From a virus, in the IMG/VR virus record IMGVR_UViG_3300025809_002164, positions 82,037-146,036 of that record: DNA of 64,000 nt; one strand, given 5' to 3'. Below the pieces are notes generated by a model, which was not told the DNA's origin, made no database searches, and was given only the letters and a program-made list of their open reading frames with translations. Positions 29,943 to 55,500 of this stretch are shown piece after piece. The position numbers were made by a program, and so were the translations under genes. The first letter of the stretch is position 1; every line of letters starts with the position of its first letter.

Positions 29943-31544
29943 TTATTCCCAAATTCCAGTAAACCTAATTTCCATTTTTGGAACACTGGAGGTTCCGTAG
30001 TTTGTGCTGACGGGGTCACTACTATAAAGGCCTACTCTTAGGTGTATGCTTTGATTATGCGCATCTTTAGTTATGGTCTTAACTTGAGTAAATGTCCCGT
30101 TATTATTTTTCTGCATCAGTCCAAAATCATATAAAAGAAAATCTGACAGTGTACATCCCGCAGGGTTTGCGAAATAATCAGGAGCAGATGTAAATTTATC
30201 ATCCGCAGCATTATCCATATTCAAGTAAGGCCACGGATCATCTGAACCTTGGTACACCCATCCGTACCCATCATCATGAGCCCCGTTACAACCTGCAGTA
30301 GATTTAATATTCATTGGATCTGCCGGTAAGATTGTAAATTTAGTTTTACCTTCAGGCCAAGCGATATTTGATTTACTCGAATTAAAGGCTGAACCTTGTG
30401 TATCTAATCCCCCATCGATTAAGGCTACGACTCCTCCTCCGCCTGCTCCAGTTAATTGTATGTAAGAATATTCAGGGTCAGCCTGACTTGGTGGTGAAGA
30501 CGTCGCTGTAGGAGTTACCGTAGCAGTCGGAGTGATAGTACTGGTAGGAGTAATAGATGAAGTAGCAGTCGGAGTGATAGTACTGGTAGGACTCACTGAA
30601 GATGTTATTGTAGCAGTCGGAGTGATAGTGCTGGTAGGAGTAATAGATGAAGTAGTAGTCGGAGTAGTAGTGGTCGTTGGAGTCGGAGTTTCACTAGCTC
30701 CAGGACTAACGCTAGCAGTCGGAGTAATCGTGCTCGTTGGAGTAATAGAGTTAGTCGGAGTTATTGTCTGAGTTATGGTCGGAGTTATTGTGCTAGTAGG
30801 AGTAATGGATGAGGTAACAGTCGGAGTTATCGTACTGGTAGGAGTCACTGAAGATGTTACTGTGGCAGTCGGAGTTATTGTGCTAGTAGGAGTAATGGAT
30901 GAGGTAACAGTCGGAGTTATCGTACTGGTAGGAGTCACTGAAGATGTTACTGTAGCCGTCGGAGTAATCGTACTGGTCGCACTCGGAGTAATCGTGCTAG
31001 TCGGAGTAATACTTGGAGTAGTCGTAATAGTCGGAGTAATACTCGGAGTAATCGTAATAGTCGGAGTAATACTTGGAGTAGTCGTAATAGTCGGAGTAAT
31101 CGTACTAGTCGGAGTAATCGAGCTGGTAGCAGTCGGGGTGATAGTGCTAGTGGGGGTAATAGTATTAGTTGGCGTAACACTTGCAGACATTAGCATTGAA
31201 GATGTCGGAGTTGGAGTCGGAGTAGTCGTGCTAGTTGGAGTAACACTAGGGTCAGGAGGGCAATTAAATTTTATCCCCGACAGCATTGGACTGATTCCAA
31301 ATACTTCTCCCTGCTCATTATAAGCGGAAACTTTATAATTATAAAGCACTGTATCACAATATTCTACTTCGTCAACCCCAGTAATAAGTATAGGGTTTCC
31401 TACTCCGGAAGGAATTAAAGTCTTAATGTGATTAAAATCTCCATAAGTAGATCCAGCGACTTCCTGCCTGTACAGCTTATAACCGTCAGCCAAGTAAGGC
31501 TCCTCGTTTTTGTGCAAAAAACTATAATATACTTTATATGCCAT
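29943..31544 (-). CDS. mucin-like virion protein: FN3-like N-domain, PTS stalk, globular tip
   Basis: GYKLYR...YNYKVSAYNEQGE; about 250 aa PTS. Confidence 0.8.
   Translation of the reverse strand: MAYKVYYSFLHKNEEPYLADGYKLYRQEVAGSTYGDFNHIKTLIPSGVGNPILITGVDEVEYCDTVLYNYKVSAYNEQGEVFGISPMLSGIKFNCPPDPSVTPTSTTTPTPTPTSSMLMSASVTPTNTITPTSTITPTATSSITPTSTITPTITTTPSITPTITITPSITPTITTTPSITPTSTITPSATSTITPTATVTSSVTPTSTITPTVTSSITPTSTITPTATVTSSVTPTSTITPTVTSSITPTSTITPTITQTITPTNSITPTSTITPTASVSPGASETPTPTTTTTPTTTSSITPTSTITPTATITSSVSPTSTITPTATSSITPTSTITPTATVTPTATSSPPSQADPEYSYIQLTGAGGGGVVALIDGGLDTQGSAFNSSKSNIAWPEGKTKFTILPADPMNIKSTAGCNGAHDDGYGWVYQGSDDPWPYLNMDNAADDKFTSAPDYFANPAGCTLSDFLLYDFGLMQKNNNGTFTQVKTITKDAHNQSIHLRVGLYSSDPVSTNYGTSSVPKMEIRFTGIWE
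30500..31250 (-). repeat. PTS-coding repeat with an internal ~84-bp duplication
   Basis: [30 protein letters not shown] occurs twice (about 30780-30960). Confidence 0.9.
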
Positions 31545-34067: not shown

Positions 34068-34913
34068 ATGTATACTAAGTCTAATAAAGAAATATATCGC
34101 TTTACTATTAATCTCGAGCAAGAAATTGAAAAAGAAGTTGATGTCGAAAAAGAAATAGAAGTCGAAAGAGAAGTTGAGGTTACTAAAACCAGAAAAGACG
34201 ATTCAGGCAAAACTGAAAAATATAAAGAAAGTGTGCTTAAAAAAGTAAAAGAGAAAGAAGTAGTTAAAGAGAAAAGAACCTCCAAGGAAAAAGTCCCACA
34301 TGTCTTCGTAATTAAACAACCGAATCGCCGGCAGATGGAAGAAGCCGACATGGAATTTAGTATTGAAATGAGCAGGTGTGTGAAAGAGGGGATACTAACT
34401 AAAGCTATGCTCTTAAATAAGTATACAGACACTGGAGGAATTATGAGCGAGTCTGAAGCTAAAGAATTATCTAAGCTTTATTCTAAACTATCAGAGAAAC
34501 AAACAGAATTTACTGCCTGGAAAATTTCTGATAAATCAAACTTTACTGAAAAACAAAAAGCTGTTATAGAGGAAATATCCTCACTCAGAAGAGTGATCGC
34601 TCAAACTGAAACTAATTATTCCGCACTACTCAATCACACAGCAGATCATAAAGCTCAAACTCGAGTGATAGGTTGGTATTTATTATCTCTCGCCCACATA
34701 GAAAAAGACGGAGAACTTGAGCAGTTCTTTAAAGGAACAGGTTATGAAGAGAAAAAAGAAAATTTGTATAAACTAGAGGAAGAAGAGGATGACCTACTAG
34801 CGGCCGTATACGACAAACTAATAGCATTTATTAGCTTTTGGTATTTCAGTGTCTCGACCAACTTTGACGACTTCGTTGATCTAGAAAAAGACATAGAGGC
34901 AGGCAACCTATAA
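34068..34913 (+). CDS. putative tail assembly chaperone
   Basis: Charged helical protein two genes upstream of the TMP. Confidence 0.5.
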   Translation: MYTKSNKEIYRFTINLEQEIEKEVDVEKEIEVEREVEVTKTRKDDSGKTEKYKESVLKKVKEKEVVKEKRTSKEKVPHVFVIKQPNRRQMEEADMEFSIEMSRCVKEGILTKAMLLNKYTDTGGIMSESEAKELSKLYSKLSEKQTEFTAWKISDKSNFTEKQKAVIEEISSLRRVIAQTETNYSALLNHTADHKAQTRVIGWYLLSLAHIEKDGELEQFFKGTGYEEKKENLYKLEEEEDDLLAAVYDKLIAFISFWYFSVSTNFDDFVDLEKDIEAGNL

Positions 34914-34914
34914 T

Positions 34915-35919
34915 GTGGAATCAACAGAGTACAGGAAGATATTTAGAGATATAATTAAAGGCCGAACCGATGTAGAAATAGGCGGCACTAAATATTACAT
35001 TAAACATCTTAGCTCTTTAGATCAAGTTGATATTGATGAAATTAGAGATTCCTATATAGAAATAGCCTTATCAAGAGGTATTCCCAGCATGAAGGAAGCC
35101 CTTCAATCCATAAAGGATCAAGGTTTATGGACAGACAAAGACGAAAGAGAAATTAAACGTCAAGAAAACTTCATATCACAATTACGAGATAACAAGACTG
35201 AACTAGTCTTAAAGTCTCAAATAGACTTACAGAATAAAGAGATAGAAGAAACTCGCGCAAAAATAAATGATCTTGAATCCAAGAAGCAAAGGTTACTTGG
35301 AGTTAATGCAGAGGATTATGCCAGTAAACGTGCTAGTGACTACTACATAATTAAGTCATTTTACTTAGACCTCGAGTTAACTAAACCATTATTTTTAGAG
35401 GAGGAAGACTTCAATGAATTATATGCGGAGGAAGTTTCTGAGTTTATCCTTGGATACAATAAAGCTTTTAATGATTTTGATGAACTTAAAATTCAAGAAA
35501 TGATACTTCAAGATTTTTATTATATATATTTTCCCTTTAGCGATGATACTGTTGGCTTTTTTGGTACTCCCGTAGTCGAATTAACTCATAATCAATTAAA
35601 GATGATAGTTTATACTAAAATATTTAAAAATATATTTGAAAATAATAAACATATTCCAGAAAAAATTAAAAAAGACCCTAAAGCATTACTTGACTATGGT
35701 AGCATATCAGATGATGCCAAATCAAACTTACAGGATAAGTTTGGAGAAGATAAAGATGGATCAACTTTATTTAATGCCACGGAAGAAGATTTTGAGTATG
35801 CCGGCCTAGAAAAACCTTCAGATAAAGCTGGAATTTCCCTTCATGACGCCGCCAAAAAGAAAGGCGGAAGTTTATCAATGGAAGATCTAATGGAATTAAG
35901 TGGTTTACCCAAAAAATAA
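34915..35919 (+). CDS. putative tail assembly chaperone 2 (GTG start)
   Basis: Acidic coiled-coil protein directly upstream of the TMP. Confidence 0.5.
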   Translation: MESTEYRKIFRDIIKGRTDVEIGGTKYYIKHLSSLDQVDIDEIRDSYIEIALSRGIPSMKEALQSIKDQGLWTDKDEREIKRQENFISQLRDNKTELVLKSQIDLQNKEIEETRAKINDLESKKQRLLGVNAEDYASKRASDYYIIKSFYLDLELTKPLFLEEEDFNELYAEEVSEFILGYNKAFNDFDELKIQEMILQDFYYIYFPFSDDTVGFFGTPVVELTHNQLKMIVYTKIFKNIFENNKHIPEKIKKDPKALLDYGSISDDAKSNLQDKFGEDKDGSTLFNATEEDFEYAGLEKPSDKAGISLHDAAKKKGGSLSMEDLMELSGLPKK

Positions 35920-35949: not shown

Positions 35950-38900
35950 ATGTCACTAGGATTAAGAACTCATGTAATAGATTTAGAACAAAACATTAAT
36001 CGTATTGTTCGAAAAGTAAATGCAGGTGGAGGTATAGTAGTTAAAGTGCGAGCGAGCGACTTTACTCAACCACTGGGCAGAATGTCGGCGAAAGCTAATG
36101 AATTCACAAAGTCTCTTGAAGCTTCCAATGCTCGAGTGATAGCCTTCGGAGCATCTGCGGCAATTATAGGGGGAGTAACCTTAGGATTCACCCAACTAGT
36201 TGTTCAGGCCACAAAAGTAGAAAAGATCTTAACCGACATTAATGTAGTTCTTAATACTTCCACACAGAATTTAGAAAAGTTCGGAAACAGCTTGTTTAAG
36301 GTTGCTCGAAATACATCCCAAACTCTAGAGGTCGCAGCAGAAGCAGCTCTGGAGTTTTCCAGACAAGGATTAAGTATGGAGGAGACTCTAAAGAGAACGA
36401 ATGATGCCCTAATCTTGACTAGGCTCACTAGTTTAAAAGCTGCCGATTCAGTAAAAGGTCTAACTGCTGCGGTTAACGGTTTCGCTGATGCAGGCATGAC
36501 TACAGCCATGGTTATCAATAAATTATCCGCAGTAGATATTAAATTTGCCGTAAGTACAGACGACTTAATTAACGCTCTATCTAGAGCTGGAGCTGTAGCT
36601 CAAGATGCGGGGGTTAGTTTTGATCAATTAATGGGAGCAGTAACTTCAGCTCAGCAGATTACAGCTCGAGGAGGAGCCGTAATAGGTAATAGTTTTAAGA
36701 CTATCTTTACAAGAGTACAAAGAGGATCAACATTACAATCCTTAGAGGATTTAGGTATTGCGGTCAGAGATATAAGAGGAAACACACTTCCTGCTATGAC
36801 GGTCCTTCAGAATTTATCATCAACTTACGAAAAGTTAGGAGCAACAACTAAAGCTGCGGTAGCCGAGCAAGTGGGTGGAGTTTTTCAAATCAACATACTT
36901 AAAGCGGCAATTAAAGACTTAAATGCCGAAACTTCAATATATAGTCAGGCGACCAAAGCATCATCGTCAGCGACAAATGAAGCTTATACAAAAAATGCAC
37001 AACTACAAAAAACTCTATCATCAATAGCCAATCAAACATTAACTACTGTTAGGGAATTAACAGCCAACCTAGGAAGCTTGACTATAGCTCCAGCCTTACA
37101 AGATTTCCTAAGCTCAGCTAACGAAGTTTTGGGGTCATTCAATAAGCTCTTTGGGGACACAGAGGGCGAATCTATTGGGGGTGACTTCGCTAAAGGTTTT
37201 GCAAGAGGTCTGGGCTCAGTACTCATGGGCCCCGGAATGATGGTTGCAGTTTTAGTGTTTGCAAAATTATTTAGTCAAGCTTTCAAATTTGCCAAAAGCT
37301 CAGTTAAAGATTTATTGCAGATTCAAAGCATTAAAGAAAAAGAAAAAGCAATACAAGAGTCTATCGTTGATGCTATGATCAAGAATGTAGCCTTAAGTAA
37401 AGAGCTAGTAAAAATAGACGGAGACCAAGTTAAGCAAGAGCAAATAGTATTAGCTTTACTAAAAGAACAGACCGCACACATAGAACAGCAAAGAAGGATT
37501 GCTTCAGATATATCTCCGGCACTTAGAAGAGCTGGAGTTCAACCTAACTTGATAGTCTCAAAAGGTTCAAAACATGGATCTGACGGCCTTATTCCAAATT
37601 ACTCAAACACAACACCCCTTGAGAGAGAAAGAGAAAGAAGCGGAGCACAGAAGGGTGGGTACACAGCTGGAGCCATAGCTAAAATGCATGTGCCCAAATT
37701 AGGTGAAGTTGTCTACAACAAAAGAGAATCAGTTAGGAAATTCCCAGGAATGCAGCAACCCGCAATTATTCCACCAATCAGCAGTAAGGCTGGTAAAAAA
37801 TACCAAGACAATTTTTCCGAGAGGCATGGCTTTGATCCATACGGCAGTTCTAATAACTCAACCTATAATGGCGGCTTAATTCCTAATTTCGCATCCAATA
37901 CAACTGAGAAGTCTGCAATTCGAGCAATCCTAGATACACTAAAGAAAAGAAAGGTAAAAGTCTTACCCAACGACCCGAAGCTCTCTTTCGCTGCAAATAG
38001 ATACATGGAGGCGACCAAAGACAGGGAGTATCCTGGAGGTTCTGTTAATTTTGGCAAACATAAAATAAGCATGAATGAAATCACCCTAGCCTTAAAGAAG
38101 CATGGTAATTATATGGGTGACGAAGATTTCTATGGAAATAAAGCTGGAGGCCTTATTCCTAACTTCGCACTTGGAGCCTCGCAACTCGCAGGTACAAATA
38201 TTCTGAAATTGCCAAAAGCGAAAATGGCAACGCAAACAACTAAATCAGACTTTAGAGGAAATAGAGTTAAGGGTTGGAAAAATTTAGAAGCTCCACTTGA
38301 CAGCATACAAAAAAGTGCCGCTAGTTATGCAGACGAGTTTAATGTTTTAAAAGGTCTAGGTATTAATGTGCTACAAAGAAAAATGTTCTTCACAAACAAA
38401 GAAGACGGAGGGATACGAAAATCTATAAATACTACTGATAGAAAAATGGCTAAATCCCGAGGATTTCAGAAAAACAATAGAGACAACATAGCCGGATCTT
38501 CATACGAATCAGGACTTTACAAAAATCATTTAAAAGATAAAGGCTATAATGAAACTTGGACTGGAGGCTACACCCCTAAAGGTTTCCAGAAAGGCACAGG
38601 GGACCCTCAATCTACGGTTGATTTTTTTAAGGCTGGAAGGCTTCCAATAGAAGCTAAGTATGGGAAATTTACTCAAGCGAACTTAATAGCAAAAAGCATA
38701 AGGCTGTCTAGCGATAGATACATAGAAGACTTTTTATCAAGCAGGGGCGAGGGCGATATTGCTAACAATATGGCTAATAAAAAATTTCAAGATGCATCAA
38801 GCACTCTTTCTAGCCTAGGTCATAAAAACGTAGATAAATCTATGGTGAAAAAATTCGGACTATCTTCAGGATTAGTACCTAATTTTATGTCTATTGGTTT

Positions 38901-41900
38901 AGGGCCTCATATGAACAGTAGCGATTGGCTAACCTCAAGTCTTAACCTAACCCGACAAAACTGGGACCAGGGCCAAAACCTAAAAGATGGTAGCTTTAGT
39001 GACTGGGTAGATTTCATAACAAAAGATCGCCAAATAGGCGTCCCGCTTCATTACAGAGACCGGCCGAGCAAAATAGACGAGATAGCTCAAAATAAATCGA
39101 ACTCGAAAAGAGCTCGTCAGGCCAAAATACTCTACAATGACTACCTTAAAAATTTCACGAACACAAACACTAAGAAAATCAAGATGTCTAAATTTGGAAA
39201 TGTTCTTGAAATGGCTTTGGCTCAAAATTTCGGCAAAAAACCTACGTCAGCTTCATACCCAATGGACTTCACACATAATCCAATACATAAGCTTGACGGG
39301 AACCCTATAGTGAGTAGACAAACTTTAGGTCTCAACTCGCAGGTGGGAGATGCCGTTGTGACTTCTTCGGGACACGAAAAAAATAAGTTTTTCTCAAAAA
39401 TTTTAGCTCACCAAATTAAATCAGGGTCAGCCGTCCTTGGAAAAAGAGGCAAATTTCCAGCAAGAATTAAAAACACAGGAGGATACAATGACTTAATCGG
39501 ACACTCAGGCAAGACGAAACTTGATAAAACTGTTACAAACCATACAGCTACAGGAGCACAGTTAACCAAAAAAAACGGCATCTTAGGGAAGTACTTAAAT
39601 CCTAAGCAAAGTTATAAGTTAGATAAGTACAAAAAAGACTTCTGGAGTTACGACGAACTAGGCATAAAGGCAGGTCAGGCTGTATCCAATTCGCAAGGTT
39701 TTATTCCAAATTATCTAAACACTGAAGAATTCGGCGACACCAGCACTAGCGCTGCCCAATTTAATCAAAATAACGGACTCGACCTACAAACAGCTCTCTC
39801 AGGAGGCAAGGGTTTCAAGCTTACAAAATCTAACTTTCAAAAAGTAAGGCAATTCCTTAATAGTGCAGAATTCAGAAGTCTTCCTGCAGGAATTAAAACT
39901 CAATTAACAAACAAGCTCAGGATTCAATCAAAATTTCTAAAAATGGGAGATGTAACTAGACCTTACTTAAAAGGCAAAACATCTTTTCCAGGTCGAATCG
40001 CAGTCTCTGGAGGTCTCATTCCGAATTTCTCCAACCCCTTGGCTGAAGCTATAGGTAGAGAAAAAGCAGCACTTTCAAGCCAGGGATCTACAGCTAAAGT
40101 CTATGTAGATCAGGATCAGAGACTTAAAGACACACTAAACCCTATGGGGCTAATGGTAGCAAACAGAAGAGATGAGCCAATATCTGGTGCTCAAGGAGTT
40201 AATCGAGCAATTAATCAAGGGCTTAATCCGAAAACTCACGGCAGTTCAAATAATTCTACATATGATTCAGGGCTAATTCCTAATTTCAACAGCCCAGTAG
40301 TAACGGGTACAGGCGGCAGTGTGTTCGCACCAGGTATTAAGGAATTAGATAAAGCAGCTAAGGATACTGCTTCCAAAGTTAAAGATCACGGTAAATCTAG
40401 CAAAGAAGCATCAGGATCAGGAATGGATATGATGGGAGCAATGTTTGCTCTGACTAGTGTCTCATATGCAGTTGAGGGAGCTTTAGGAGATGTCGACAGC
40501 TCCGCCGGAGCATTGGTTAAAACTCTCAATGCGGGAATAATGGGAGCTTCTCAGGGAGTAATGGTCTGGCAAGGCCTAAGTTCTGTAGGGGATAGCCTTA
40601 TTAAGAAAAACACAAAGATGGGAAAAGCTATGGGTGTCGGAACAAAAATTCTCGGAGGTCTTGGCGCAGCTGTCGGAGTCCTAGTTCCAGTATTTCAAGC
40701 TTTAGGGGAAAATACCAGCATGCTGGATGGTCCGTTTGAAACTTTAGCTAAAAGTGTAAAAGAAACATCGAAATCTATAGGGGCTCTAGGTAATGCCATA
40801 ACTGCCCACACAGATCTAGAGTCTACTCGTAGTGAAATTTCACAATTAAATAATTCTCAAGATAAAAATACTTACGACGGAAGGATGAAACTATTAACCC
40901 TGCAGACGAAAGAAGCCAAAAATAACTCTGATTTAATTAAATCTGCTGGAGAACTTGGTAAAGCTTTAAACCTAACAGGAGCGGATCTTATGACAATGAC
41001 ATCTGGAACTGCTTTGGGCATGGAAAAACTACAAGAAAACATGTTAAAATACCAACAAGCACTTGCCGTAGAAACCGCGATGATGCAATTTACTAAAGGG
41101 CTAGGTAGTGGTGGGTTTGCTGGAATGTTCAAACAAGAAGGTACTGATTATGAAAGAAGGGCCGGCCAAGTGGGTGTAGCTCAGCAAATAGCTAGTCAAT
41201 CAGAAAATCCCAAACAGTTAGACGAACAACTAAAAGTGTTTATGAAGGCCTTTTCTACCCTCAAAGAAGACTCCCAGCCCCTAAGAGACTCGGTCAGTAC
41301 CTACCAGAATGTGTTGGCAGCAGGTAATAAAACAGGATTTGGAAGGTCCGCCGGATCACTTGCTATGATGGCGAACAGTGCTAAGAATGAGCTTGGGATG
41401 GGAGTTGACGTGAGCAAGATTACTTCCACCTTTGAGAGTTCCGTCTCTAAGCTTCCTGTAGCCTATCAAACTTTAGCATCCCAAATCATAAAGAACGCGC
41501 AATCAATGGAAATAGGGGATATTGAATCGCTCCTTAAAGGAGTTGAGAGTAATGCGAGGCTTTTAGTTAAAGATTCTAAAAAGTCAGCAGAACAACAAGT
41601 AATTAATTATAAATACCTAAGAGAGACTACTAGACTTAATCGAGAACTGGCCAACCGAACACAACTATCATTAAATCAGGACAAAATAAACCTATCCTTA
41701 GGAAAAGAAAAGCAGGGAGTTCTAAAGTCAGCTCGAGCACACAATATAAAATACCTTGCAGCCCTGGGTGCGACAACTAAAGCCGCCACGCTTGAATCAG
41801 AGATGCTCGAAAAAAGCAAACAAATTGATCAAGATTTAATGAACAAAAAAACGGAAATAAATAATAAATACAAAGCCGAAGGAATCAAGTATATTGACAC

Positions 41901-44900
41901 ATTATTTAACGATAAAAAAAATAGCCTTATCGATCCAGTATTAACTCAGAGCCAGGGGGGCAAGGATTCGAGTGGAAAGAGCCTTTCTGCTGAAAAAACA
42001 TGGGAAAAATCTCAAAAAGAGCTACAGTCACGAATGATAGCAGCATCCTTCAATAACAAGGGCATTGAAGAGGGCGGCACACAAGATCCAAAACTTCTAA
42101 AACTCAAGAAAGATTTAGGCCTTGCCCAGAACCAAGAACGAGTAAGCTTTCTATTTAAAGAGTACATCCATTCCTTGAAGGATTCAGTAAAACAGCAAGA
42201 GGCCCTAAATAACTTTCAAAAAGCAAAGATAATACCAGAGCAGATAGACCTGGCAACGTTCTTCAGTCATTCCGTAAATCTTAAGAACCAAGAAATCAAG
42301 ACGGAAGAAGACTCCGCTAAGGTTAAGAAAATCAACCTGGATGTAGTGAGAGCACAGCTCAATATGGAAAAAGGAACTCTATCTCATGCCCAGAAAAGGC
42401 TTACAGATATCAAAGCTATCCCTTACCACCAATTAGACGAAGTAACAAAGGAACAAATAGACACCAATAAAACTGTAGCTCAGGCTGACTACGAGATCCT
42501 TAGAAATAAAGAAATATATCTTTCCTTCGGAGAAGGTCTTGCATCCCTACAATCAGAGCAGCTTGAGGTTGAAAGGTTAAGAGTAAAAAAAGAATCGGAT
42601 TCGCTCAATACTCAATCTAAAAGGCTAGATGCAGAAGAAAAGCTTAGAAAATCGACGGATGATTATAAAAACATAATAAGGCTAAAGGTAGAAAATGAGC
42701 TTAAGACTTTAAGGAATTCTACTGATGATGATATTACGACTTTAAAAGAGGAGAAAAAACAGGGTGCCTTCGGAAAGCGAACTGAAGCCGGGAACAGTCA
42801 GTTGGTTAGGGACGAAGAAAGGGCGATGCTCAATCACATAGAAGCCTTAAAGCAAGGCACTTATTCTCTCGGAGCTCTGCACAGCATGGCTGAGAGTACC
42901 AGATCTTTCGAAAAAGCCCTAATAGAAGCTAAAACAAAACTCGAGAACGGAGGCGACTTTCTAGAGGGTCAGCAAGGAGTAATTCTGGATACAGCTCACC
43001 AAAAAGGGGGCATAGAAAAACTTAAAGGAGAAAAATCAGTATTCAACGACAGAGGAGCAACAGTAAGAGTTGCAGAAACAGACCTGAAGATAGCTCAAGC
43101 GCACAAGGAGTTAAATTTAACAATGGGTGAAGGGAGTTTATTTGCGGACTCAATGAGAGTAAAAATTGCTGAAGCAAATGTAGAAATGTCCAGGTTTGGC
43201 GAAACAATGGCCAACACGGCATTTGATGCGACCAAGGAAGGCTTTAAGGGGCTTATTCAAGACATGGGAGACGGAACTAAATCTCTAGGTGACGTAGCCG
43301 CTAATTTCTTTGGAACTATAGTAGACAGAATGAATGAGAAGTTGATAGATAGAGCTGCAGGTCAATTAACTGCAGGCCTAATGGAAGCCGCAGGCTTCAA
43401 TCAAGGTGGCCATGTGGGATTCAATCAGGGAGGTCATGTCTCTAGGTATTCATCTGGAGGCACAACTCGCCAAGTTCCAGCCATGTTGACCTCTGGAGAA
43501 TATGTTGTACAAAAAAGAATAGTCGACAGGCTTGGAACTAACGAACTTAATAAAATTAACGACTCTGGATCCCTCGAGGAACTATATGATAAACCAAATA
43601 ATGAGTCTTTTTCATTATTAAATGAAGGAGGCATAGCAAGCCCTCCAATCATAAAACTAAAAGAGGGAGGAGTTGCTAAAAATTATCTTTCAGGAATAGT
43701 AGGAACAATTAATAAATTCATGGGGGGCATAGTAAAAATGGCAGGGGGCGGAATACTATCCTCAAGCCCAGACGATAGTGCAGGTATGAAAATGGCAAAA
43801 GGGGCGGGCTACTTAGCAGGCTCAAGCCTCCATGCATATCAAAACAGAGGAGAAGGCAACCAAGGCCCTAGCGCTCCTAAAGCTCCGACCGCGCTCAACA
43901 CACACTCCTCCTTGAATATTGACCCAACAGGAAACAGGATGAGTGCTAAATATAAAGCTAATGATTCCTATCGTCAAGATTATGGGAAATATCTACTAGA
44001 TAAATACCAGCATGATGTTGACACTAATAACCAAAAAGTAAAAAGTAGGGCATCTACAGCTCAAGGAATAGTAAATGGCATTGGATTCATGGGAATAGGA
44101 ATGGCAGCTAGTGCAGCCGGAGATTACGCTAAAGCGGGAGGCTTTACCAAAGAGGGGCGAATGGCCATGCGTGCTGAAAAAGATGCTGCTGAATATGCAG
44201 CAAACCCTCAAGCTTACGCTCCTCCAGCAAAGGGCTCCGAAAGAATGCCCTACCATACAGGGGGTATAAACTTTAATTCTCCAGGTTCAGCAAACTCAAA
44301 CCCAGCAGGAATAGGGGGAGGAGTCACAAATAATGTAAGCAATTCCACTCAAGCTGGAAACAATTATCATACCGGTGGCATGAATTTCAATTCATCTCGC
44401 TCCACCCAGTCAAACTTAAATAAAGTTAATGACTACTCATGGACAAAAAATAACAACTTATCCTCAGGGCTCAAAAATCCATATCAACTGAATCAAGGAG
44501 GAATGATAAAGATGAGCTCCGGAGGTAAAGTTCACGGCCCAGGAGGTATTGATAAGGTTGGGCCAGTTATGCTCGATAGAGGTGAATTTGTGATAAAATC
44601 TTCCAGTGTTAATAAGATTGAAAAACAAAGTCCAGGATTCTTCAATAGGCTTAACTCAATGAAGATGTATGAAGGAGGAATAGTTGACCCTTCAGCCAAA
44701 GCTGTGGCTAGCACCACAGAGAGTGGGAATACTCAAAACTCATCAAGCAATGTAACCATCAATATCAACGTTTCTTCTGGAGGAGAAACTTCAGTTAGTG
44801 GCGGAGAAGCGAAGCAGCAAGCATTTGCATCCAAAATTAAAGAAGCTGTGGTTGGCATTATATCTCAAGAGAAAAGAGTAGGAGGCATGCTCAGTGGCAA

Positions 44901-44904
44901 CTAA
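35950..44904 (+). CDS. tape measure protein, 2984 aa, with internal GxIPNF-delimited cassettes
   Basis: TP901-like TMP core (EFSRQGL, AGAVAQDAGVSFDQL, GNSFKTIFTR, LEDLGI), hydrophobic segments, coiled coil, C-terminal GG..VPAML..GE(Y/F)V motifs. Confidence 0.95.
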   Translation: MSLGLRTHVIDLEQNINRIVRKVNAGGGIVVKVRASDFTQPLGRMSAKANEFTKSLEASNARVIAFGASAAIIGGVTLGFTQLVVQATKVEKILTDINVVLNTSTQNLEKFGNSLFKVARNTSQTLEVAAEAALEFSRQGLSMEETLKRTNDALILTRLTSLKAADSVKGLTAAVNGFADAGMTTAMVINKLSAVDIKFAVSTDDLINALSRAGAVAQDAGVSFDQLMGAVTSAQQITARGGAVIGNSFKTIFTRVQRGSTLQSLEDLGIAVRDIRGNTLPAMTVLQNLSSTYEKLGATTKAAVAEQVGGVFQINILKAAIKDLNAETSIYSQATKASSSATNEAYTKNAQLQKTLSSIANQTLTTVRELTANLGSLTIAPALQDFLSSANEVLGSFNKLFGDTEGESIGGDFAKGFARGLGSVLMGPGMMVAVLVFAKLFSQAFKFAKSSVKDLLQIQSIKEKEKAIQESIVDAMIKNVALSKELVKIDGDQVKQEQIVLALLKEQTAHIEQQRRIASDISPALRRAGVQPNLIVSKGSKHGSDGLIPNYSNTTPLERERERSGAQKGGYTAGAIAKMHVPKLGEVVYNKRESVRKFPGMQQPAIIPPISSKAGKKYQDNFSERHGFDPYGSSNNSTYNGGLIPNFASNTTEKSAIRAILDTLKKRKVKVLPNDPKLSFAANRYMEATKDREYPGGSVNFGKHKISMNEITLALKKHGNYMGDEDFYGNKAGGLIPNFALGASQLAGTNILKLPKAKMATQTTKSDFRGNRVKGWKNLEAPLDSIQKSAASYADEFNVLKGLGINVLQRKMFFTNKEDGGIRKSINTTDRKMAKSRGFQKNNRDNIAGSSYESGLYKNHLKDKGYNETWTGGYTPKGFQKGTGDPQSTVDFFKAGRLPIEAKYGKFTQANLIAKSIRLSSDRYIEDFLSSRGEGDIANNMANKKFQDASSTLSSLGHKNVDKSMVKKFGLSSGLVPNFMSIGLGPHMNSSDWLTSSLNLTRQNWDQGQNLKDGSFSDWVDFITKDRQIGVPLHYRDRPSKIDEIAQNKSNSKRARQAKILYNDYLKNFTNTNTKKIKMSKFGNVLEMALAQNFGKKPTSASYPMDFTHNPIHKLDGNPIVSRQTLGLNSQVGDAVVTSSGHEKNKFFSKILAHQIKSGSAVLGKRGKFPARIKNTGGYNDLIGHSGKTKLDKTVTNHTATGAQLTKKNGILGKYLNPKQSYKLDKYKKDFWSYDELGIKAGQAVSNSQGFIPNYLNTEEFGDTSTSAAQFNQNNGLDLQTALSGGKGFKLTKSNFQKVRQFLNSAEFRSLPAGIKTQLTNKLRIQSKFLKMGDVTRPYLKGKTSFPGRIAVSGGLIPNFSNPLAEAIGREKAALSSQGSTAKVYVDQDQRLKDTLNPMGLMVANRRDEPISGAQGVNRAINQGLNPKTHGSSNNSTYDSGLIPNFNSPVVTGTGGSVFAPGIKELDKAAKDTASKVKDHGKSSKEASGSGMDMMGAMFALTSVSYAVEGALGDVDSSAGALVKTLNAGIMGASQGVMVWQGLSSVGDSLIKKNTKMGKAMGVGTKILGGLGAAVGVLVPVFQALGENTSMLDGPFETLAKSVKETSKSIGALGNAITAHTDLESTRSEISQLNNSQDKNTYDGRMKLLTLQTKEAKNNSDLIKSAGELGKALNLTGADLMTMTSGTALGMEKLQENMLKYQQALAVETAMMQFTKGLGSGGFAGMFKQEGTDYERRAGQVGVAQQIASQSENPKQLDEQLKVFMKAFSTLKEDSQPLRDSVSTYQNVLAAGNKTGFGRSAGSLAMMANSAKNELGMGVDVSKITSTFESSVSKLPVAYQTLASQIIKNAQSMEIGDIESLLKGVESNARLLVKDSKKSAEQQVINYKYLRETTRLNRELANRTQLSLNQDKINLSLGKEKQGVLKSARAHNIKYLAALGATTKAATLESEMLEKSKQIDQDLMNKKTEINNKYKAEGIKYIDTLFNDKKNSLIDPVLTQSQGGKDSSGKSLSAEKTWEKSQKELQSRMIAASFNNKGIEEGGTQDPKLLKLKKDLGLAQNQERVSFLFKEYIHSLKDSVKQQEALNNFQKAKIIPEQIDLATFFSHSVNLKNQEIKTEEDSAKVKKINLDVVRAQLNMEKGTLSHAQKRLTDIKAIPYHQLDEVTKEQIDTNKTVAQADYEILRNKEIYLSFGEGLASLQSEQLEVERLRVKKESDSLNTQSKRLDAEEKLRKSTDDYKNIIRLKVENELKTLRNSTDDDITTLKEEKKQGAFGKRTEAGNSQLVRDEERAMLNHIEALKQGTYSLGALHSMAESTRSFEKALIEAKTKLENGGDFLEGQQGVILDTAHQKGGIEKLKGEKSVFNDRGATVRVAETDLKIAQAHKELNLTMGEGSLFADSMRVKIAEANVEMSRFGETMANTAFDATKEGFKGLIQDMGDGTKSLGDVAANFFGTIVDRMNEKLIDRAAGQLTAGLMEAAGFNQGGHVGFNQGGHVSRYSSGGTTRQVPAMLTSGEYVVQKRIVDRLGTNELNKINDSGSLEELYDKPNNESFSLLNEGGIASPPIIKLKEGGVAKNYLSGIVGTINKFMGGIVKMAGGGILSSSPDDSAGMKMAKGAGYLAGSSLHAYQNRGEGNQGPSAPKAPTALNTHSSLNIDPTGNRMSAKYKANDSYRQDYGKYLLDKYQHDVDTNNQKVKSRASTAQGIVNGIGFMGIGMAASAAGDYAKAGGFTKEGRMAMRAEKDAAEYAANPQAYAPPAKGSERMPYHTGGINFNSPGSANSNPAGIGGGVTNNVSNSTQAGNNYHTGGMNFNSSRSTQSNLNKVNDYSWTKNNNLSSGLKNPYQLNQGGMIKMSSGGKVHGPGGIDKVGPVMLDRGEFVIKSSSVNKIEKQSPGFFNRLNSMKMYEGGIVDPSAKAVASTTESGNTQNSSSNVTININVSSGGETSVSGGEAKQQAFASKIKEAVVGIISQEKRVGGMLSGN

Positions 44905-48862: not shown

Positions 48863-49568
48863 ACCCATCCGAAGCTGCCTTCGTTTCGCTTTAGAAAGTT
48901 GCGATAATGAGCGTTTTGGAATTTTCGTACACAAGGACAGTGATTACGATTATGAATTTATACCTATTGATAATTTAGATAAATCAAATCCAAATCATTT
49001 CAATATTAATAATAAATTATTTTATAATTACTATAAACAGTCAAAAGTTATATCTTTATTTCATACACATATAATTGACTCTCCAGAACCGAGTCCTATA
49101 GATATAGCTTTATCTCAATCTTTAAATCTACCTACTTATATATTGTCATGTTCGAGCAAGAAGAGCTCTCTGTACTACCCGCCTGTACACAATCGAGCAG
49201 AGCTGTATTCAAGGATATTCATACCTTTTTTTCAAGATTGCATTACATTTGTTAAAGATTTTTTATATTTAAAATTTAATATTAATTTAGTAGAACTTTT
49301 TAAAAATTGGGCCAGAAGATCTAAAGACTCAAACTCTTACTTAATTAACGAATTGGAAAAACATTTCAACGAAGTTAAAAAAACAGAATTAAAATACGGG
49401 GATGTGGTTATATTTAAACCCTCAATGACAAACTTATTTCATGCTGGAATAATTGACGAAAAACTAATGCTATCCCATCACCCAATGGGCTACCAACCTA
49501 CCAGCGAATTATTTACCCCTCAACTACTTAATAAGGTGTATAAAGTATATAGGAGTAAGGTTTTATGA
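48819..49568 (+). CDS. lambda gpK-like JAB + NlpC/P60 tail assembly protein
   Basis: FHTH..PSPID; QDCITFV, GDVVIF, HAGI, SHH. Confidence 0.85.
   Translation: MDYLSEDFLGLGNTKPIRSCLRFALESCDNERFGIFVHKDSDYDYEFIPIDNLDKSNPNHFNINNKLFYNYYKQSKVISLFHTHIIDSPEPSPIDIALSQSLNLPTYILSCSSKKSSLYYPPVHNRAELYSRIFIPFFQDCITFVKDFLYLKFNINLVELFKNWARRSKDSNSYLINELEKHFNEVKKTELKYGDVVIFKPSMTNLFHAGIIDEKLMLSHHPMGYQPTSELFTPQLLNKVYKVYRSKVL
49536..49540 (+). promoter_or_regulatory. GTGTA late-promoter motif
   Basis: 24 nt before ATG 49565; leader contains AGGAGTAAGG. Confidence 0.5.
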
Positions 49569-52500
49569 AGAGATTTATTTTATATGGAGAAATGGCTGAT
49601 CTATTTTGCAAAGAAATAGAATTAAGAGCTAGCACCATGAGGGAAGCTATAGAGGGTCTATCTGCCAATTTCCCTAAGTTTAGAAGTTATTTTATTAATA
49701 AATTAAATAAAGGGATCCATTATCATTTTGTATGTCCAGATAAAAACTCCATGGAAATGTACTGCCTGGACATGCCTTTAGCTGCAGACGAGTACGACAT
49801 ACTTCCATCCGTAGAAGGATCCGCAGCTGGTGCGACAGCATTTGCAGGAAATGCTTTACTTGGATACGGAATGTCCTGGCTTTCTGATAAATTAACCCCA
49901 AAGGAACCTCCTGAAAACGAAATAATTACAACCAACTCTTTCATATATTCAAACAACGAAAACAGGGCAGAGCAGGGCACACCAGTTCCCGTGGTATATG
50001 GACAACTAAGAGTCGGATCTAAAGTAATACATTCCAGCATTCATAACTATGATTACGATTATGACGCCGGAAGCATACACGAAGGCAAGCCAATCAACAC
50101 AAGACTATCTAGACTAATAGGAGGAGCTGACTATAATTTCATAAATCCGACAGATATAACAGATCTGAGAGCAGGAACTTCAGAAAGTTTTAAAGGCCTC
50201 AAAGATTCTGCCTCAGACATCACGAAGAGGTTTGCTGGAATAGGCATGTCAATGCATGCGGGGAATGGCACTAAAAACCTCAGCTCCAAATTGGAGAATG
50301 AAGCAATGAACGAAGTCTTTGAAAATAATAAAGATAGTTCGAATAAAAAGATGCATTTCGGACCTTCAGAAAATACCGCAACCCACACTGAGGCTAGAGA
50401 AGGCTGGTGGGATATCGGTGCATCAAAAAACGCAAGACCCTTTTTATATCCAATAGCGGGAAGCGTTGACATTAACATGAGGCCGGCAGGACCAACCACC
50501 TTATCTGTAGAAAGAGAGTCTAAAGCCGGATTAGTGCCTGTAAATATAGATGAAAAATGCTTATCGTTTGTAAGTCCAAGGGTCGTATCAACAGTAGGAA
50601 CCAGGACAGCTTACAATAAACTGGAATCTATAGGCATTCATAAATCTCTAGATATTATATCCGAAGGCCCAATTGCAGGCCTAGCTAACCCGATAACTGG
50701 CCTTGATGCAGACAACGGATTAGTTAATTACCCTTATTCTAAAGCAGACCCTGTTCGCTCTACAAGATCAGCATTAGTCCAAAATATTGATTATGCTAAC
50801 CTGCAGACACCAAACTTCCCCTTAGTTATCTCGAACGCGGGATCTGATTATCCAAATGGAGTATACAATAAAACGGGTAACGATCAGTCTGATCCAAGTT
50901 TTTTTATAACAATTAAAGGTCCATCTTCGCTAAAATCAGCAAGCATTCAAGATTCATCTTTCTATAAGGGAGACCAGAATAATGACGGCCTGCCAGATAA
51001 TACAGTTTTCTTCAAAAATAATATTGCAACCACTGAACCTTTATTCTTTTCAGACAATAGAATATTCTTACTCTCCTCGGGGGACGGTAGAATATGCCTA
51101 AACGACAACGATAACAATGCAATAAACGGTTCTCTACCTGCAGTATACACAACCGCTGAGAATCCAGGAGCCGGTGTCACGGGGGTTATTGATTTAGCTC
51201 AACTTGAATCTGACTCAAACATACTACCAGGATTTAATTCGAACTTTAAAATAGGAAAAGGCTACGGTTCTCCACCTGCAGGCCTAACATACAACATCTC
51301 TCCCCACAACGAGAGCTTGGAGTATGATGTAGAAATTGAAAAACTTTCGAGTTCTAAAAGGATATCAAACTCGGAAGTGATGGATTATGGTTACTTTTTT
51401 TTAGACAGAGAATCAAATCCCACTTTTCAAAACGAATTTAATGCTGTCCACAATTCTACAGCTCCGATCATCCCTAGGACGAATTTAAATTGGTCAGCCT
51501 CAGTAAGGAATTCTATTTATTCAACGGCATTTAATGCAAATTCAAGTATAACCATAGTGGTTGGAACTTGGAGGCAGAATTTGCGATTTGGCAGCCGAAT
51601 AAACAACGTTAGCCTTACTATAACTATGCAGCAATACATAGATTGCAGTAATGTTACTGCATCCAATACCAATGCAACGGCAACAGCGACACCTGGTTTT
51701 AATTCATGGAATAATGATCAAGCCTCTATTACGAATGAATTTCAAAATTTAGTCACAGGATCAGCCGTTCCTCTAGGTTTTTTACTGCGAAATGCAGCCT
51801 TCGCAAACACCGTTTTTAATCAATTTAACTCTCAAGCTGGCAACACATTAACGTCAATAACTATTCCCGCCGTAACTATAACGAGAGCTCAGAGTATTCA
51901 ATCCGGCGGAGGAAGGTACTTAAAGTTCGGTCCAGGCTCAGGAAGCAATACAGCAAGCGGGACAACAGCTGCAGGGTGGACCACTCCGTCGCACATGCTA
52001 GAAGTAGGTAATAATAATTTCGCCACTGTATCTATAATGAGCGATGGAGCAATACCTGAAGATTTAAGCCCAACTCCTAGAGGCTTTTATTGCCCAATGC
52101 TACACCCAAGAATAACAGTGTTTGTCCTAAGAAAGACAACAGGCTCAACGGGATCATCATTCAGGTTTCTACCTACTAATATTGATGCTGTAGCTACAAT
52201 TTCGGCCACAGGAACGGTTTCAAGTGTGAACCTTCTGAGGGTTCCGGATCTACCCGTTTACGAGTCGACATTTAATGGTGGAGACTGGACTCCTATTTTA
52301 GTCAATAGTTCGACAGATACACCTGTAGTTCTTTTTCCTAATTCGCCAGATTTTTCGTACCAAGATTTAGGATACTATTGCCAAATTGATCCTAGTAATG
52401 CCGCCATCAGTGCGGACTTCGAAATTGACAACGGAACATTAACTCATGATGCTATAGCGGGAAGTAGGAGACATTTATGCACTATGGAGGCCAACTGGAA

Positions 52501-55500
52501 CAACCATATATCGAGAAACAGAATCACTCCAGGTAGGACACAACATGGAGCCGGAATGTTCCCCTCTATATTAAACAATGCATCTATACTTTCGGCAACC
52601 CCCACTATAGCTTTCAATATTGAAGCTGGTAATAAATTCAACACCCCTACAGCTACAGCTCAAGCTCAAGTTACAGTCGAAAGCATAAACCTTACGGGTG
52701 CGGATTTTTTAATCAATGCCCTTACAAACCCTACATTAGGTGCGGCATCCACCATAATATGCACAGGAAGGCCAGCCTCACTTACTGTGCTAAATGCCGG
52801 AATAGGTTATACTTTCAAATCAGGAAACGCAAACGGCTCCAGAATATCTCAAGATATATATAATTTCCAATACGGAATCAAAAAATTCGATCTTAAAAAT
52901 ACAGGAAATAAGGGGTACAAACCTGATCAGACCTTTTATGCATATGGAGTAAGCAGAACTAAGAATTTCGCCGCAGCAACAGCCAATCCCAATAATGCTA
53001 TATATAACTCATGCAAGCTTAAAATTTCGACAGACAATGCCGGTTCTATCTCTGACATAGAAATTTTGGATCCAGGATTTGGTTTTTCTACAGTACTTGA
53101 TCCAGATGATTTTATATTTTCTAACGACTCTCAATTTTTTAATAATCCTCCGGATGCCGCATTTTTAGCAGGAAGCTCGACTGAGTTCATAGACCCGGCT
53201 ATTCACTTTTTGAAGCAAGATCTTATCGTATCAGTAGCCAACAATCATCTTAATATTCTTAATAATGAAGGCTCAATCAGTAAGTTCTACATAAGCCAGG
53301 AAGGGTTAGGATTCAATCGATTTCAAGACATCTTTAACCCTTTTTCGAGCATCTCCTTTAATCCTCCAGTTTTTCAAATAACTATAGTCAACGGAAGCAT
53401 TGCCTCTATCCTCGTACAAAACCCTGGATCTGGATACTCAAACTTAGACTCGTCTATAAAAATAAAAATTTCAGACCCTCCTACATTTGCCCTGCCTCAA
53501 GTTAACAATGCAGCCATAGATCCCGATTCATGGGCTAGATCTATATATCTAAACGATGTTCCAATGAGAGACAAGAATGGAATGTTTAACTTTTCTAAAT
53601 TTCACTTCGATACAAGAATAGGTCACGGAAAAAACGGACTAGGTGAGAGCAATTTAATTCCAAGCCAGGTCGACCTTATCGCCACCAAATCGAGACCCAA
53701 TATGATAAGTTCTGAATTCAAGCTGCCCTCGTATACTAAAGTGATTGATTATCCTCTATATGGGCCCAGGAATGAAAATGAAAAGGACTACTACTACGCC
53801 CACACGATCAAAAACCCAGAAGTCTCTGTGATAGGAATTTCTATCAACATTAAAGAGCTTCACTATATTTATGAAGGAGATGAAGCTGCTGTTTATGTAA
53901 ACTTGATCCCATTGATGATGGCTGGAGTTGGTTTTATGGCTGCAAAAGCAATGAAGGACGCAATTTCAGCAGCCTTCATACAAGACCCAATATCGCTATA
54001 CTCAAAAGGAATGGGTTCTGGTACTGGAGTAGGGGCCTGCATGGGAGCCCCGATAGCCACTCAGAATCGAGACGGCGGACAGGGAATGGGTACGACCGTC
54101 GCAAAAGTTGGAGAAATGGCTAAATCGGCAATAATGGCCGGAATAGGTGCCGCGATTCTCGGAGGAGCGGCTGGAATGGTATTAACTTATTTACTGGTTA
54201 AAATATTTCCTTGTAGTAAAATTCCCTGGCTATGCTTTAAAATTGGAGAAATAATCAAGAATAGTGGAGAGATCTGGCCCGCGAAAGTAAGAATAGCTAT
54301 AGAGTATGGAGTCGAGGGAGAGACTCTTGAAAAAGATGTAATCTCATTCAACGGCTGTGCTACCAACGAATATGTAAAAGATGTATTGATTGAAAACCTC
54401 CCCAAAGCCGAAGGCTCTAGCAATAACTTTAAAAATAGGATTGTAAAAGTCTACAGAACAACTCGTAGCTTGGACCCAATCTCTGGAGGTATAGTTGAGG
54501 CTAGATATAAAATTCAAACATCACTACACTCGATAACAGAATACGTCGAAGGCTTTTTTAGTTACCCAAATACAGCGATAATAGGAACTAGAGTAAATTC
54601 AAAAGATTTTCCACAACAACCCAAAAAAGAATTTTTAATAAAAGGCCGAATGATCAGAGTGCCGCATAACTATAACCCCTCAATTGGAACGTACAATGGG
54701 GACTGGGACGGAAACTGGAAATACATAGACTCGAACGCTGATAATCTAGCTCAGACTAGCGAAATTTTGCTAGAATGGACAAGTAATCCAGCATGGATAA
54801 TTTTCGACCTATTAACTAACGAGAGATACGGGATGGGAAAATATGGAATAAAAGAATCAGATATTGATGCCTGGTCTTTTTATACTTTTTCAAAGTTTTG
54901 CGATGAGAAGGTCGATGTAGTTATAGATGGAGTTAAGTCAAGTGAGCGCAGGCATATGTGCAACCTTTATATAGACTCAGAACGTCAAGCATACGATTAC
55001 ATAAAAGACTTGATGTATATTTATAACTCCTCAATTAGTTTTAACGGGGGGAAAATATACATAACTACAGATTCATCTGTCTTAGGGAAAAATGAATCGA
55101 TAATGATATTTAACAATTCAAATGTAGATGAGTCTGGCTTTTCTTATTCTAGTACTCCTGAGACTTCAAGGATCACTTCTGCGACTGTAGATTACCTAGA
55201 CGAAAGAGATAATTACATGCAAAAAAGCGAATACGTAGAAGATGGCGAAGGAGTTAAAGAGCACGGATACTCTCACATAAAAATAGCAGGAATGGGAGTA
55301 ACAAGGAGGGGAGAGGCTCACCGCCTGGCTTGGCATAAAATTTTAACAAAGCAATTAGAAAAAGAAATAATACAATTCAAAACTGGACTCCAAGGATCAT
55401 ACTTAAGGATTGGCGACGTTATAGATGTAGTTGATAATCATAAGATAGAAAAACATTCAGGAGGTAGAATTACCAGGATCGTTTCGGCCACAGAGATTGA

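Follow-up and report, generated by a model that had tools for sequence, protein, structure and literature searches.

Why would a phage build a row of self-contained basic modules, separated by copies of one short peptide, into its tape measure protein (TMP)? The question is raised by a gene in the window analyzed here, a stretch of 64,000 nucleotides (nt) that forms the final 64 kb of IMG/VR record IMGVR_UViG_3300025809_002164. The record measures 146,036 bp, is rated 100% complete and comes from an uncultured, marine, large siphovirus. The gene (P0001; 35950 to 44904, plus strand) is a single uninterrupted open reading frame (ORF) of 2984 amino acids (aa). It matches PF10145 over aa 119 to 310 (E 1.9e-20; 74 bits, the cut-off being 33.2) and the TMP family phrog_4211 of PHROG (E 4e-43). 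Because of these two matches, together with tail-tip genes on its 3′ side and genes in the tail assembly chaperone position on its 5′ side, we assign the ORF as the genuine TMP of a large siphovirus. Our answer to the question, to which we give a probability of roughly 0.5, is that this TMP bears a hypervariable, exchangeable array that serves as a changeable payload carried into the host, and that the peptide between the modules is maintained by a conserved reader.

A peptide-delimited array and the exchange of its modules

A regular-expression scan found the motif G[LF][IV]PN[FY] seven times in the TMP, at aa 546, 642, 734, 974, 1250, 1355, and 1441. The copies read GLIPNY (motif 1, 37585 to 37602), GLIPNF (motif 2, 37873 to 37890; motif 3, 38149 to 38166), GLVPNF (motif 4, 38869 to 38886), GFIPNY (motif 5, 39697 to 39714), and GLIPNF again (motif 6, 40012 to 40029; motif 7, 40270 to 40287), all on the plus strand, and they bound units of 96, 92, 240, 276, 105, and 86 aa from start to start. 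Outside the TMP, no copy turned up in any other frame of the window or elsewhere in the genome of 146,036 bp, and the genome's amino-acid composition predicts only 0.00086 copies in the TMP and 0.013 in all long ORFs, against the seven observed. The scan reproduces exactly the motif positions and unit sizes that an initial annotation had reported from the letters of the window. That annotation had also described the units as basic and unlike the helical TMP body, in agreement with the isoelectric points (pI) of 9.7 to 10.4 and net charges of +6 to +21 that we calculated for cassettes 1 to 5, and the pI of 8.1 for cassette 6, compared with 6.3 to 9.3 for the body. Its report of a duplicated linker, GSSNNSTY..GLIPNF, with similarity at the DNA level was likewise confirmed, the two plus-strand copies (37841 to 37890 and 40238 to 40287) being 80% identical over 50 nt. 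The seven motif copies differ from one another in synonymous codons, and selection therefore acts on the peptide and not just on the DNA.

To place the array among its relatives, we searched with aa 530 to 1470 and obtained 241 giant TMPs, all metagenomic. The 120 listed, which constitute our sample, span 2,089 to 5,131 aa, and 117 of them carry 3 to 15 copies of the relaxed motif G-x-[IVL]-P-N-[FYW]. Clustering of the inter-motif segments by BLASTP at 60% mutual coverage sorted 717 cassettes into 159 families, 84 of them singletons, which occur in varied combinations. The window TMP reads 3-10-1-30-5-2 in family numbers, and relatives read, for example, 3-1-6-4-5-2, 3-1-43-17-8-2, or 1-11-12-16-7. 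All six window cassettes are encoded on the plus strand: cassette 1 (37603 to 37872, 90 aa, family 3), cassette 2 (37891 to 38148, 86 aa, family 10), cassette 3 (38167 to 38868, 234 aa, family 1), cassette 4 (38887 to 39696, 270 aa, family 30), cassette 5 (39715 to 40011, 99 aa, family 5), and cassette 6 (40030 to 40269, 80 aa, family 2). They thus fall into six BLAST families, a set of unrelated, shuffled domains within one polypeptide, save that cassettes 1 and 6 are distant paralogues (36% identity over 119 columns that include motifs and linker, E 7e-13). An array usually opens with family 3 and closes with family 2, so that cassettes 1 and 6 stand as bookends. The cassette 6 type is last in 78 of the 120 relatives and is conserved at 42 to 58% identity across seven loci. 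Cassette 4 belongs to a rare family (4/120) that is related to family 41 (hhalign probability 92.8%); its derivation as a degenerate copy of cassette 3 was considered and rejected (hhalign probability 10%).

A second sample, with a different bias, took the last cassette as its anchor. Here, 298 IMG/VR stretches encode a relative of cassette 6, and the 80 loci fetched from among them hold 353 cassettes in 108 families; family 1, the cassette 3 type, occurs in only about 13 of the 80.

The nearest relative, L017 (a 61-kb ENA contig), has flanking tail genes that are 97% identical to those of the window, and its TMP contains one additional 157-aa cassette exactly between two motif copies, with motif 2 of the window at the junction. 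The insertion starts directly past GLIPNFA, and its last residues are GGFIPNFA, which places either end in motif DNA, with TTATTCCTAATTTYGCA as the shared junction. Over the 120 TMPs, 64 to 66% of the ends of BLASTP homology blocks in the array fall within −10 to +15 aa of a motif, compared with 13.7% for randomly chosen positions. At 15 further loci, identity remains at 60 to 78% for the pair of genes on either side of the TMP and for the TMP N-terminus (65 to 77% for the N-terminal scaffold across 15 relatives), while the cassette content differs. The tail module is thus conserved around an array that is itself hypervariable. The suggestion that the cassettes are swappable and that the motif acts as a recombination anchor is therefore supported, by the number of families, by the whole-cassette indel in L017 with a motif copy at either end, and by the concentration of block ends at motifs; the alignment of related TMPs for gain and loss at the motif, which the initial annotation had recommended, gave a positive result. 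The module is shown to be the unit of evolutionary exchange, and the motif the junction at which modules are gained, lost, or replaced among related phages.

The motif itself was further defined by a logo of 777 distinct instances, in which conservation is confined to positions −3 to +6, as [AL]-[SA]-x-G-[LF]-[IV]-P-N-[FY]-[AS], and the flanks are unconserved. Motif variants are more uniform inside one TMP than between TMPs (variance 1.6- to 2.4-fold that of the null, p 0.0005 to 0.013). One related locus has a variant joint, GFIPNM, with Met for Phe/Tyr, between its first two cassettes (L005:4903-4920), and the strict expression therefore undercounts joints.

Several minor observations concern the arrangement of cassettes in relatives. 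The TMPs P0139 (5016 aa) and P0008 (4888 aa) contain a within-TMP cassette duplication, the segments from aa 1006 and 2218 being 53% identical; P0139 is longer than P0008, to which it is otherwise 92 to 98% identical, by about one cassette (124 to 128 aa). Extra motif pairs occur far downstream in the TMP body of P0075, P0092, P0097, P0105, and P0112 (in P0092, at aa 3045/3121 and 4372/4463), and motif-bounded insertions are therefore not restricted to the N-terminal array. TMP genes that appear split in some assemblies were examined as possible breaks at motifs; the breaks lie off the motifs and look like assembly or frameshift artefacts.

Cassette content and predicted structures

Recognizable enzymes are found among the cassettes of relatives. 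The family-6 cassette (L003:5653-6240) is a staphylococcal nuclease (SNase) domain, with matches to PF00565 (E 3.3e-5) and to the thermonuclease structure 4pmc (E 8e-5), and another family is a GNAT acetyltransferase (E 8e-7). Precomputed Pfam annotation lists PF00565, PF00583, and PF07022 in some relatives. No SNase match was obtained in the window TMP by Pfam, either with the whole protein or with single cassettes. The window cassettes probably are proteins that bind nucleic acid.

By eye, the extra L017 cassette (L017:11948-12418), which starts ..WYDFDETLG.. and contains ..LIDDAPEN.., resembles motifs I and IV of HAD phosphatases; Pfam and PDB sequence searches gave no support for this assignment.

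The initial annotation had also proposed that each cassette be folded. For cassette 3 the outcome was a folded alpha/beta domain, modeled by AF2 with a predicted local distance difference test (pLDDT) score of 89 and a predicted template modeling (pTM) score of 0.86 from a 12-sequence alignment. For cassette 4 the model is not interpretable (pLDDT 23 to 50, with just three homologues in the alignment). Two findings named there as fatal to the proposal, a fixed cassette content and an absence of folded domains, are contradicted by the varied families and by the fold of cassette 3, respectively. An AlphaFold model of the 913-aa array, made from a 13-row mosaic alignment, is poor globally (mean pLDDT 53). 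Each of the seven motifs is placed in a coil segment whose pLDDT is below 50. The intervening units reach higher values: 54 to 69 for cassette 1, 63 to 78 for cassette 2, 70 to 90 for cassette 3, 61 to 75 for cassette 5, and 54 to 72 for cassette 6. The model is consistent with motifs that sit in flexible, exposed linkers.

The fold of cassette 3 had no neighbor above background, with a best E of 0.36 against PDB and 0.26 against BFVD in Foldseek and a best Z of 3.7 in the wide VIA search and 3.0 in a second VIA look. Its profile matched only Cas1 among PDB sequences (E 0.47). Foldseek returned nothing for the 913-aa array model, and ESM Atlas look-ups of cassettes 3 and 4 gave no usable match. 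Cassette 2 is weakly similar to lobe IIB of the Hsp70 nucleotide-binding domain (Z 5.4 to 6.9 over 63 to 75 aligned residues in VIA). In the 12 sequences of the cassette 3 alignment, 25 columns are invariant, among them D152, E162, and K164 in cassette numbering, and E114 is nearly so. D152 and E162/K164 lie on or beside model strands 153 to 154 and 161 to 164, a predicted layout that fits the D...(D/E)xK arrangement of PD-(D/E)xK nucleases on adjacent strands. As to the restriction-endonuclease-like alpha-beta-beta-beta-alpha-beta core fold, restriction enzymes appear only weakly among the structural matches, as MspI (Z 3.0, 116 residues aligned, root-mean-square deviation 6.5), PspGI (Z 2.9, 95 aligned), and PfoI (Z 2.0), and these rows stand among unrelated rows of equal Z.

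Cassette 3 was found only inside giant TMPs. Near-length searches detected no stand-alone homologues of cassettes 3 and 4, and an exhaustive profile search with cassette 3 yielded 37 clusters, every one of giant TMPs or their fragments, with no free-standing homologue. None of the 50,697 deposited phage genomes matched the bookend cassette at E up to 1.

Payload, processing, and competing explanations

It is established that a phage TMP occupies the lumen of the tail, its C-terminus towards the tip. Infection expels TMPs from the tail (Linares et al. 2023, PMC10038345), and modules carried in a TMP would therefore enter the host ahead of the DNA. T5 pb2 and lambda gpH both undergo processing while the tail is assembled; pb2 is cut after R1127, which frees an enzyme domain that is expelled into the host envelope (PMC10038345). 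On this background, we propose that six self-contained basic modules are held between a conserved N-terminal scaffold and a hydrophobic, helical ruler body and are joined by a conserved 8- to 10-residue peptide set in a flexible linker. They would travel with the TMP into the envelope or cytoplasm of the host, forming a payload that differs between phages and that in relatives would include nuclease and acetyltransferase modules. The peptide would owe its conservation to a conserved reader, most likely a protease that cuts the modules loose in the way that the enzyme domain of the T5 TMP is freed; this is the least certain step of the scheme. The short DNA homology that the peptide provides may also ease in-frame module exchange.

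We regard a processing protease as the most economical reader because about 25 bits of conserved linker sequence are typical of polyprotein sites and because there is precedent for TMP processing. In its full form, this proposal makes the motif the dedicated site of a conserved protease, encoded by the phage, by the host, or by one of the Pfam-dark cassettes, and the TMP a polyprotein that frees up to six basic proteins; we put it forward tentatively, as a possibility that falls well short of even odds. The coil predicted at the motifs would permit cleavage and does not demonstrate it. Three residues of the T5 site ..SFVPR|A.., F-V-P, recur in the motif, and GGMIPMF occurs at aa 107 of lambda gpH; both are slight likenesses. 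No peptidase family was detected in the TMP by Pfam, with the whole protein at E up to 0.1 or with single cassettes at E up to 1; a novel protease may lie among the cassettes, since most of them are Pfam-dark. A search of the genome for PF03420 (S77) gave no match and was uninformative, as the control genomes gave none either. If the proposal is correct, the polyprotein would release its modules at assembly or ejection, and these would enter the cell just ahead of the DNA; we would then be looking at a widespread plug-and-play effector-injection system of aquatic siphophages, with more than 150 cassette families that mostly lack a known fold or function.

Several results weigh against a payload, or against a protease as its reader. 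The six window cassettes match no Pfam family, no PDB sequence, and no PDB or BFVD fold, so that in calling them effectors we draw on the relatives and on the basic charge. Among 30 cassette representatives from relatives, only two have a Pfam match, and the other 28 have none at or near threshold. The conserved, paralogous bookends, cassettes 1 and 6, may be scaffold rather than cargo. Pfam detects no protease domain in the TMP or in neighboring genes, which leaves room for a host or novel protease, and PF04586 (S78) and PF00574 (ClpP), both found in control genomes, are absent from this genome. The likeness to the T5 site covers just three residues, and the low pLDDT at the motifs may come in part from the shallow, mosaic alignment. 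The uniformity of motifs within a TMP fits a phage-specific conserved reader, and gene conversion could produce it as well.

Some of these results would be expected if the TMP were never cut. It is possible, though we lean against it, that the protein remains an uncleaved multi-domain TMP whose cassettes stay attached and act in cis, for example in piloting the leading DNA end or in crossing the envelope. In that case, the motif would serve as a flexible docking joint for a conserved tail component, for example the tube lumen, the assembly chaperones, or the TMP trimer itself, and would keep the bulky modules in register. Such a role would suit the hydrophobic and aromatic residues of the motif, which are typical of a docking peptide, and motif uniformity within a phage fits any phage-specific reader; a plain tether, however, would not need some 25 bits of conserved sequence. 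The strongly basic character of the cassettes is as expected for DNA binding in cis, and the array lies between hydrophobic TMP segments (aa 417 to 448 and approximately 1490 to 1586). The nuclease and acetyltransferase cassettes of relatives, on the other hand, are better explained as freed enzymes, though tethered action is possible, and in the T5 precedent a TMP enzyme domain is indeed cut off (PMC10038345). Retention in one piece is also in line with the conserved bookends, which suggest a scaffold role, and with the failure to find a protease in the TMP, its neighbors, or the tested families in the genome. Against it, one level of a siphophage tube lumen would, judging from domain size, leave little room for three copies of a folded 234- to 270-aa domain.

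Alternatively, the motif might be mainly a DNA-level target of recombination or gene conversion, and the cassettes neutral, selfish, or modulators of ruler length that deliver nothing. We consider this improbable. The L017 indel junction does lie within shared motif DNA, and the DNA repeats of motif plus linker reach 50 nt at 80% identity, yet exact DNA matches extend over only about 8 to 17 nt and the motif codons vary synonymously while the peptide is invariant. Most cassettes have no recognizable function, as neutral or selfish elements might, but cassette families are conserved across phages that are 60 to 70% identical elsewhere, cassette 3 combines its 25 invariant columns with a confident fold, and the arrangement is stable in at least 15 assemblies. 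An origin by chance, low-complexity repeats, or assembly chimera can be dismissed: 0.0009 copies are expected and seven observed, the same protein was assembled independently in many samples, and the motif recurs in hundreds of related TMPs, and nothing was found that speaks for such an origin.

Single enzymes embedded in TMPs have precedent, as has one cleavage event, that of T5 pb2. What sets the window TMP apart is an array of many modules, exchanged in combinations within the ruler protein and delimited by copies of a single conserved peptide. None of the papers searched contained the motif strings in such a context or described TMP cassette arrays. Mycobacteriophage TMPs carry embedded Rpf-like or peptidase motifs, and SPbeta yomI is annotated as a transglycosylase in a TMP. 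In these cases, catalytic domains are inserted in the TMP, as in the relatives described here, but the enzymes are single, fixed, and envelope-directed, without a delimiting motif or combinatorial exchange. In the polymorphic toxins of bacteria (CdiA, Rhs), a VENN or DPxGL peptide borders a constant scaffold and swappable C-terminal modules and forms the recombination junction, and in Rhs also an autoproteolysis site. These toxins are secreted and have one variable tip per protein and paired immunity genes, whereas the TMP array has many modules, lies inside a phage structural protein, and lacks immunity genes. Viral polyproteins have short conserved protease sites in linkers between folded units, much like the motif linkers, and the ejection or internal proteins packaged in phage heads are pre-made proteins delivered at infection, to which the cassettes can be likened; here a tail lumen protein takes the place of the capsid as carrier, and the searches above identified no protease.

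To our knowledge, the paper on polyvalent proteins describes no conserved inter-domain delimiter. Its text (Iyer et al. 2017, PMC5512222), as far as it is reached by tail and TMP terms, gives no sign of one. The polyvalent proteins of phages and conjugative elements resemble the array in that one large polypeptide brings together effector-type domains that are unrelated and shuffled, with nucleases and GNAT among them. They are predicted to accompany the DNA into the host and to come apart into their components (PMC5512222), as we propose for the array. Polyvalent proteins are not TMPs, however, and "tape measure" is absent from the paper's text; their predicted processing is by embedded Zn-metallopeptidase (MPTase) domains (PMC5512222), none of which the Pfam scan detected in the window TMP. 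T5 pb2 offers a defined cleavage site beside a hydrophobic stretch that separates an expelled enzyme domain, in the form of one site and one C-terminal peptidoglycan hydrolase domain at the tip end (PMC10038345). The window TMP has instead seven putative sites and six variable modules in its N-terminal half.

If the cassettes are delivered, the tail lumen would be a second cargo compartment beside the capsid, its contents re-assorted at a fixed peptide joint. This would explain the size of these TMPs (2,000 to 5,100 aa) and would offer a large, mostly uncharacterized catalogue of candidate early host-takeover or anti-defence proteins. The conserved joint would be a natural insertion site for proteins in laboratory engineering of phage tails, and the system bears on the old question of which protease processes lambda gpH and T5 pb2, and why.

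The rest of the TMP gene and its surroundings

The N-terminal scaffold (35950 to 37584, plus strand, aa 1 to 545) contains the PF10145 match (36304 to 36879) and hydrophobic segments at aa 60 to 88 and 417 to 448. This N-terminal domain is also the only part of the TMP with matches in deposited phages, to distant TMPs of Bacillus and Lactococcus phages among the 50,697 genomes, in which no DNA match to the window was found. Identical or near-identical TMPs (2981 to 2984 aa) are present in at least 15 other assemblies. Downstream of the array, the TMP body and C-terminus (40288 to 44904, plus strand) comprise a Gly-rich hydrophobic stretch, strongest at aa 1560 to 1586 (40627 to 40707), a long region of charged helix, and a C-terminus that is rich in Gly and bears repeats. 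In the body, 40716 to 41578 (about aa 1590 to 1877) has no blastn similarity to the otherwise 93 to 98% identical L017, and blastp aligns through it; from these alignments we take it to be a divergent or replaced patch without motif boundaries. The Gly-rich C-terminus contains the tandem peptides FNQGGHV and YHTGG(I/M)NFNS, twice each (43396 to 43440 and 44251 to 44394). Its length differs from that in L017, where window positions 44295 to 44543 align twice, and its two ML..GE(Y/F)V(V/I) elements resemble the segment that directly follows the site at which T5 pb2 is cleaved.

Two conserved genes of 281 and 334 aa precede the TMP in the tail assembly chaperone position (34068 to 35919, plus strand). 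They are syntenic and 60 to 72% identical in all relatives and have no Pfam or PHROG match. The start codon of the 334-aa ORF, a GTG in the +1 frame, lies one base past the stop codon of its 281-aa neighbor; within 34068 to 35919, that frame is open only from 34897. In each of the eight relatives checked, its counterpart has a non-ATG start 1 to 4 bases from the upstream stop. No slippery site was found. They may be a large G/GT-type tail-chaperone pair expressed via frameshifting, or a case of simple translational coupling.

On the other side, the TMP is followed by genes for minor tail proteins of the lambda gpM, gpL, and gpK type and then by a gpI-J fusion. PF05939, PF05100, and PF13550 are present in the tail-tip genes of relatives, and the synteny is kept in 15 loci. 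The fusion (49565 to 55915) is a tip protein of 2116 aa with a gpI-like domain at aa 1 to 102 (phrog_32) and a gpJ-like central fibre domain at aa 1565 to 2095 (phrog_31), separated by about 1,450 aa without assignment. Upstream, part of a minus-strand gene of 533 aa (30503 to 31177) consists of internally repetitive DNA, with many off-diagonal blastn matches of 68 to 78% at two places in L017.

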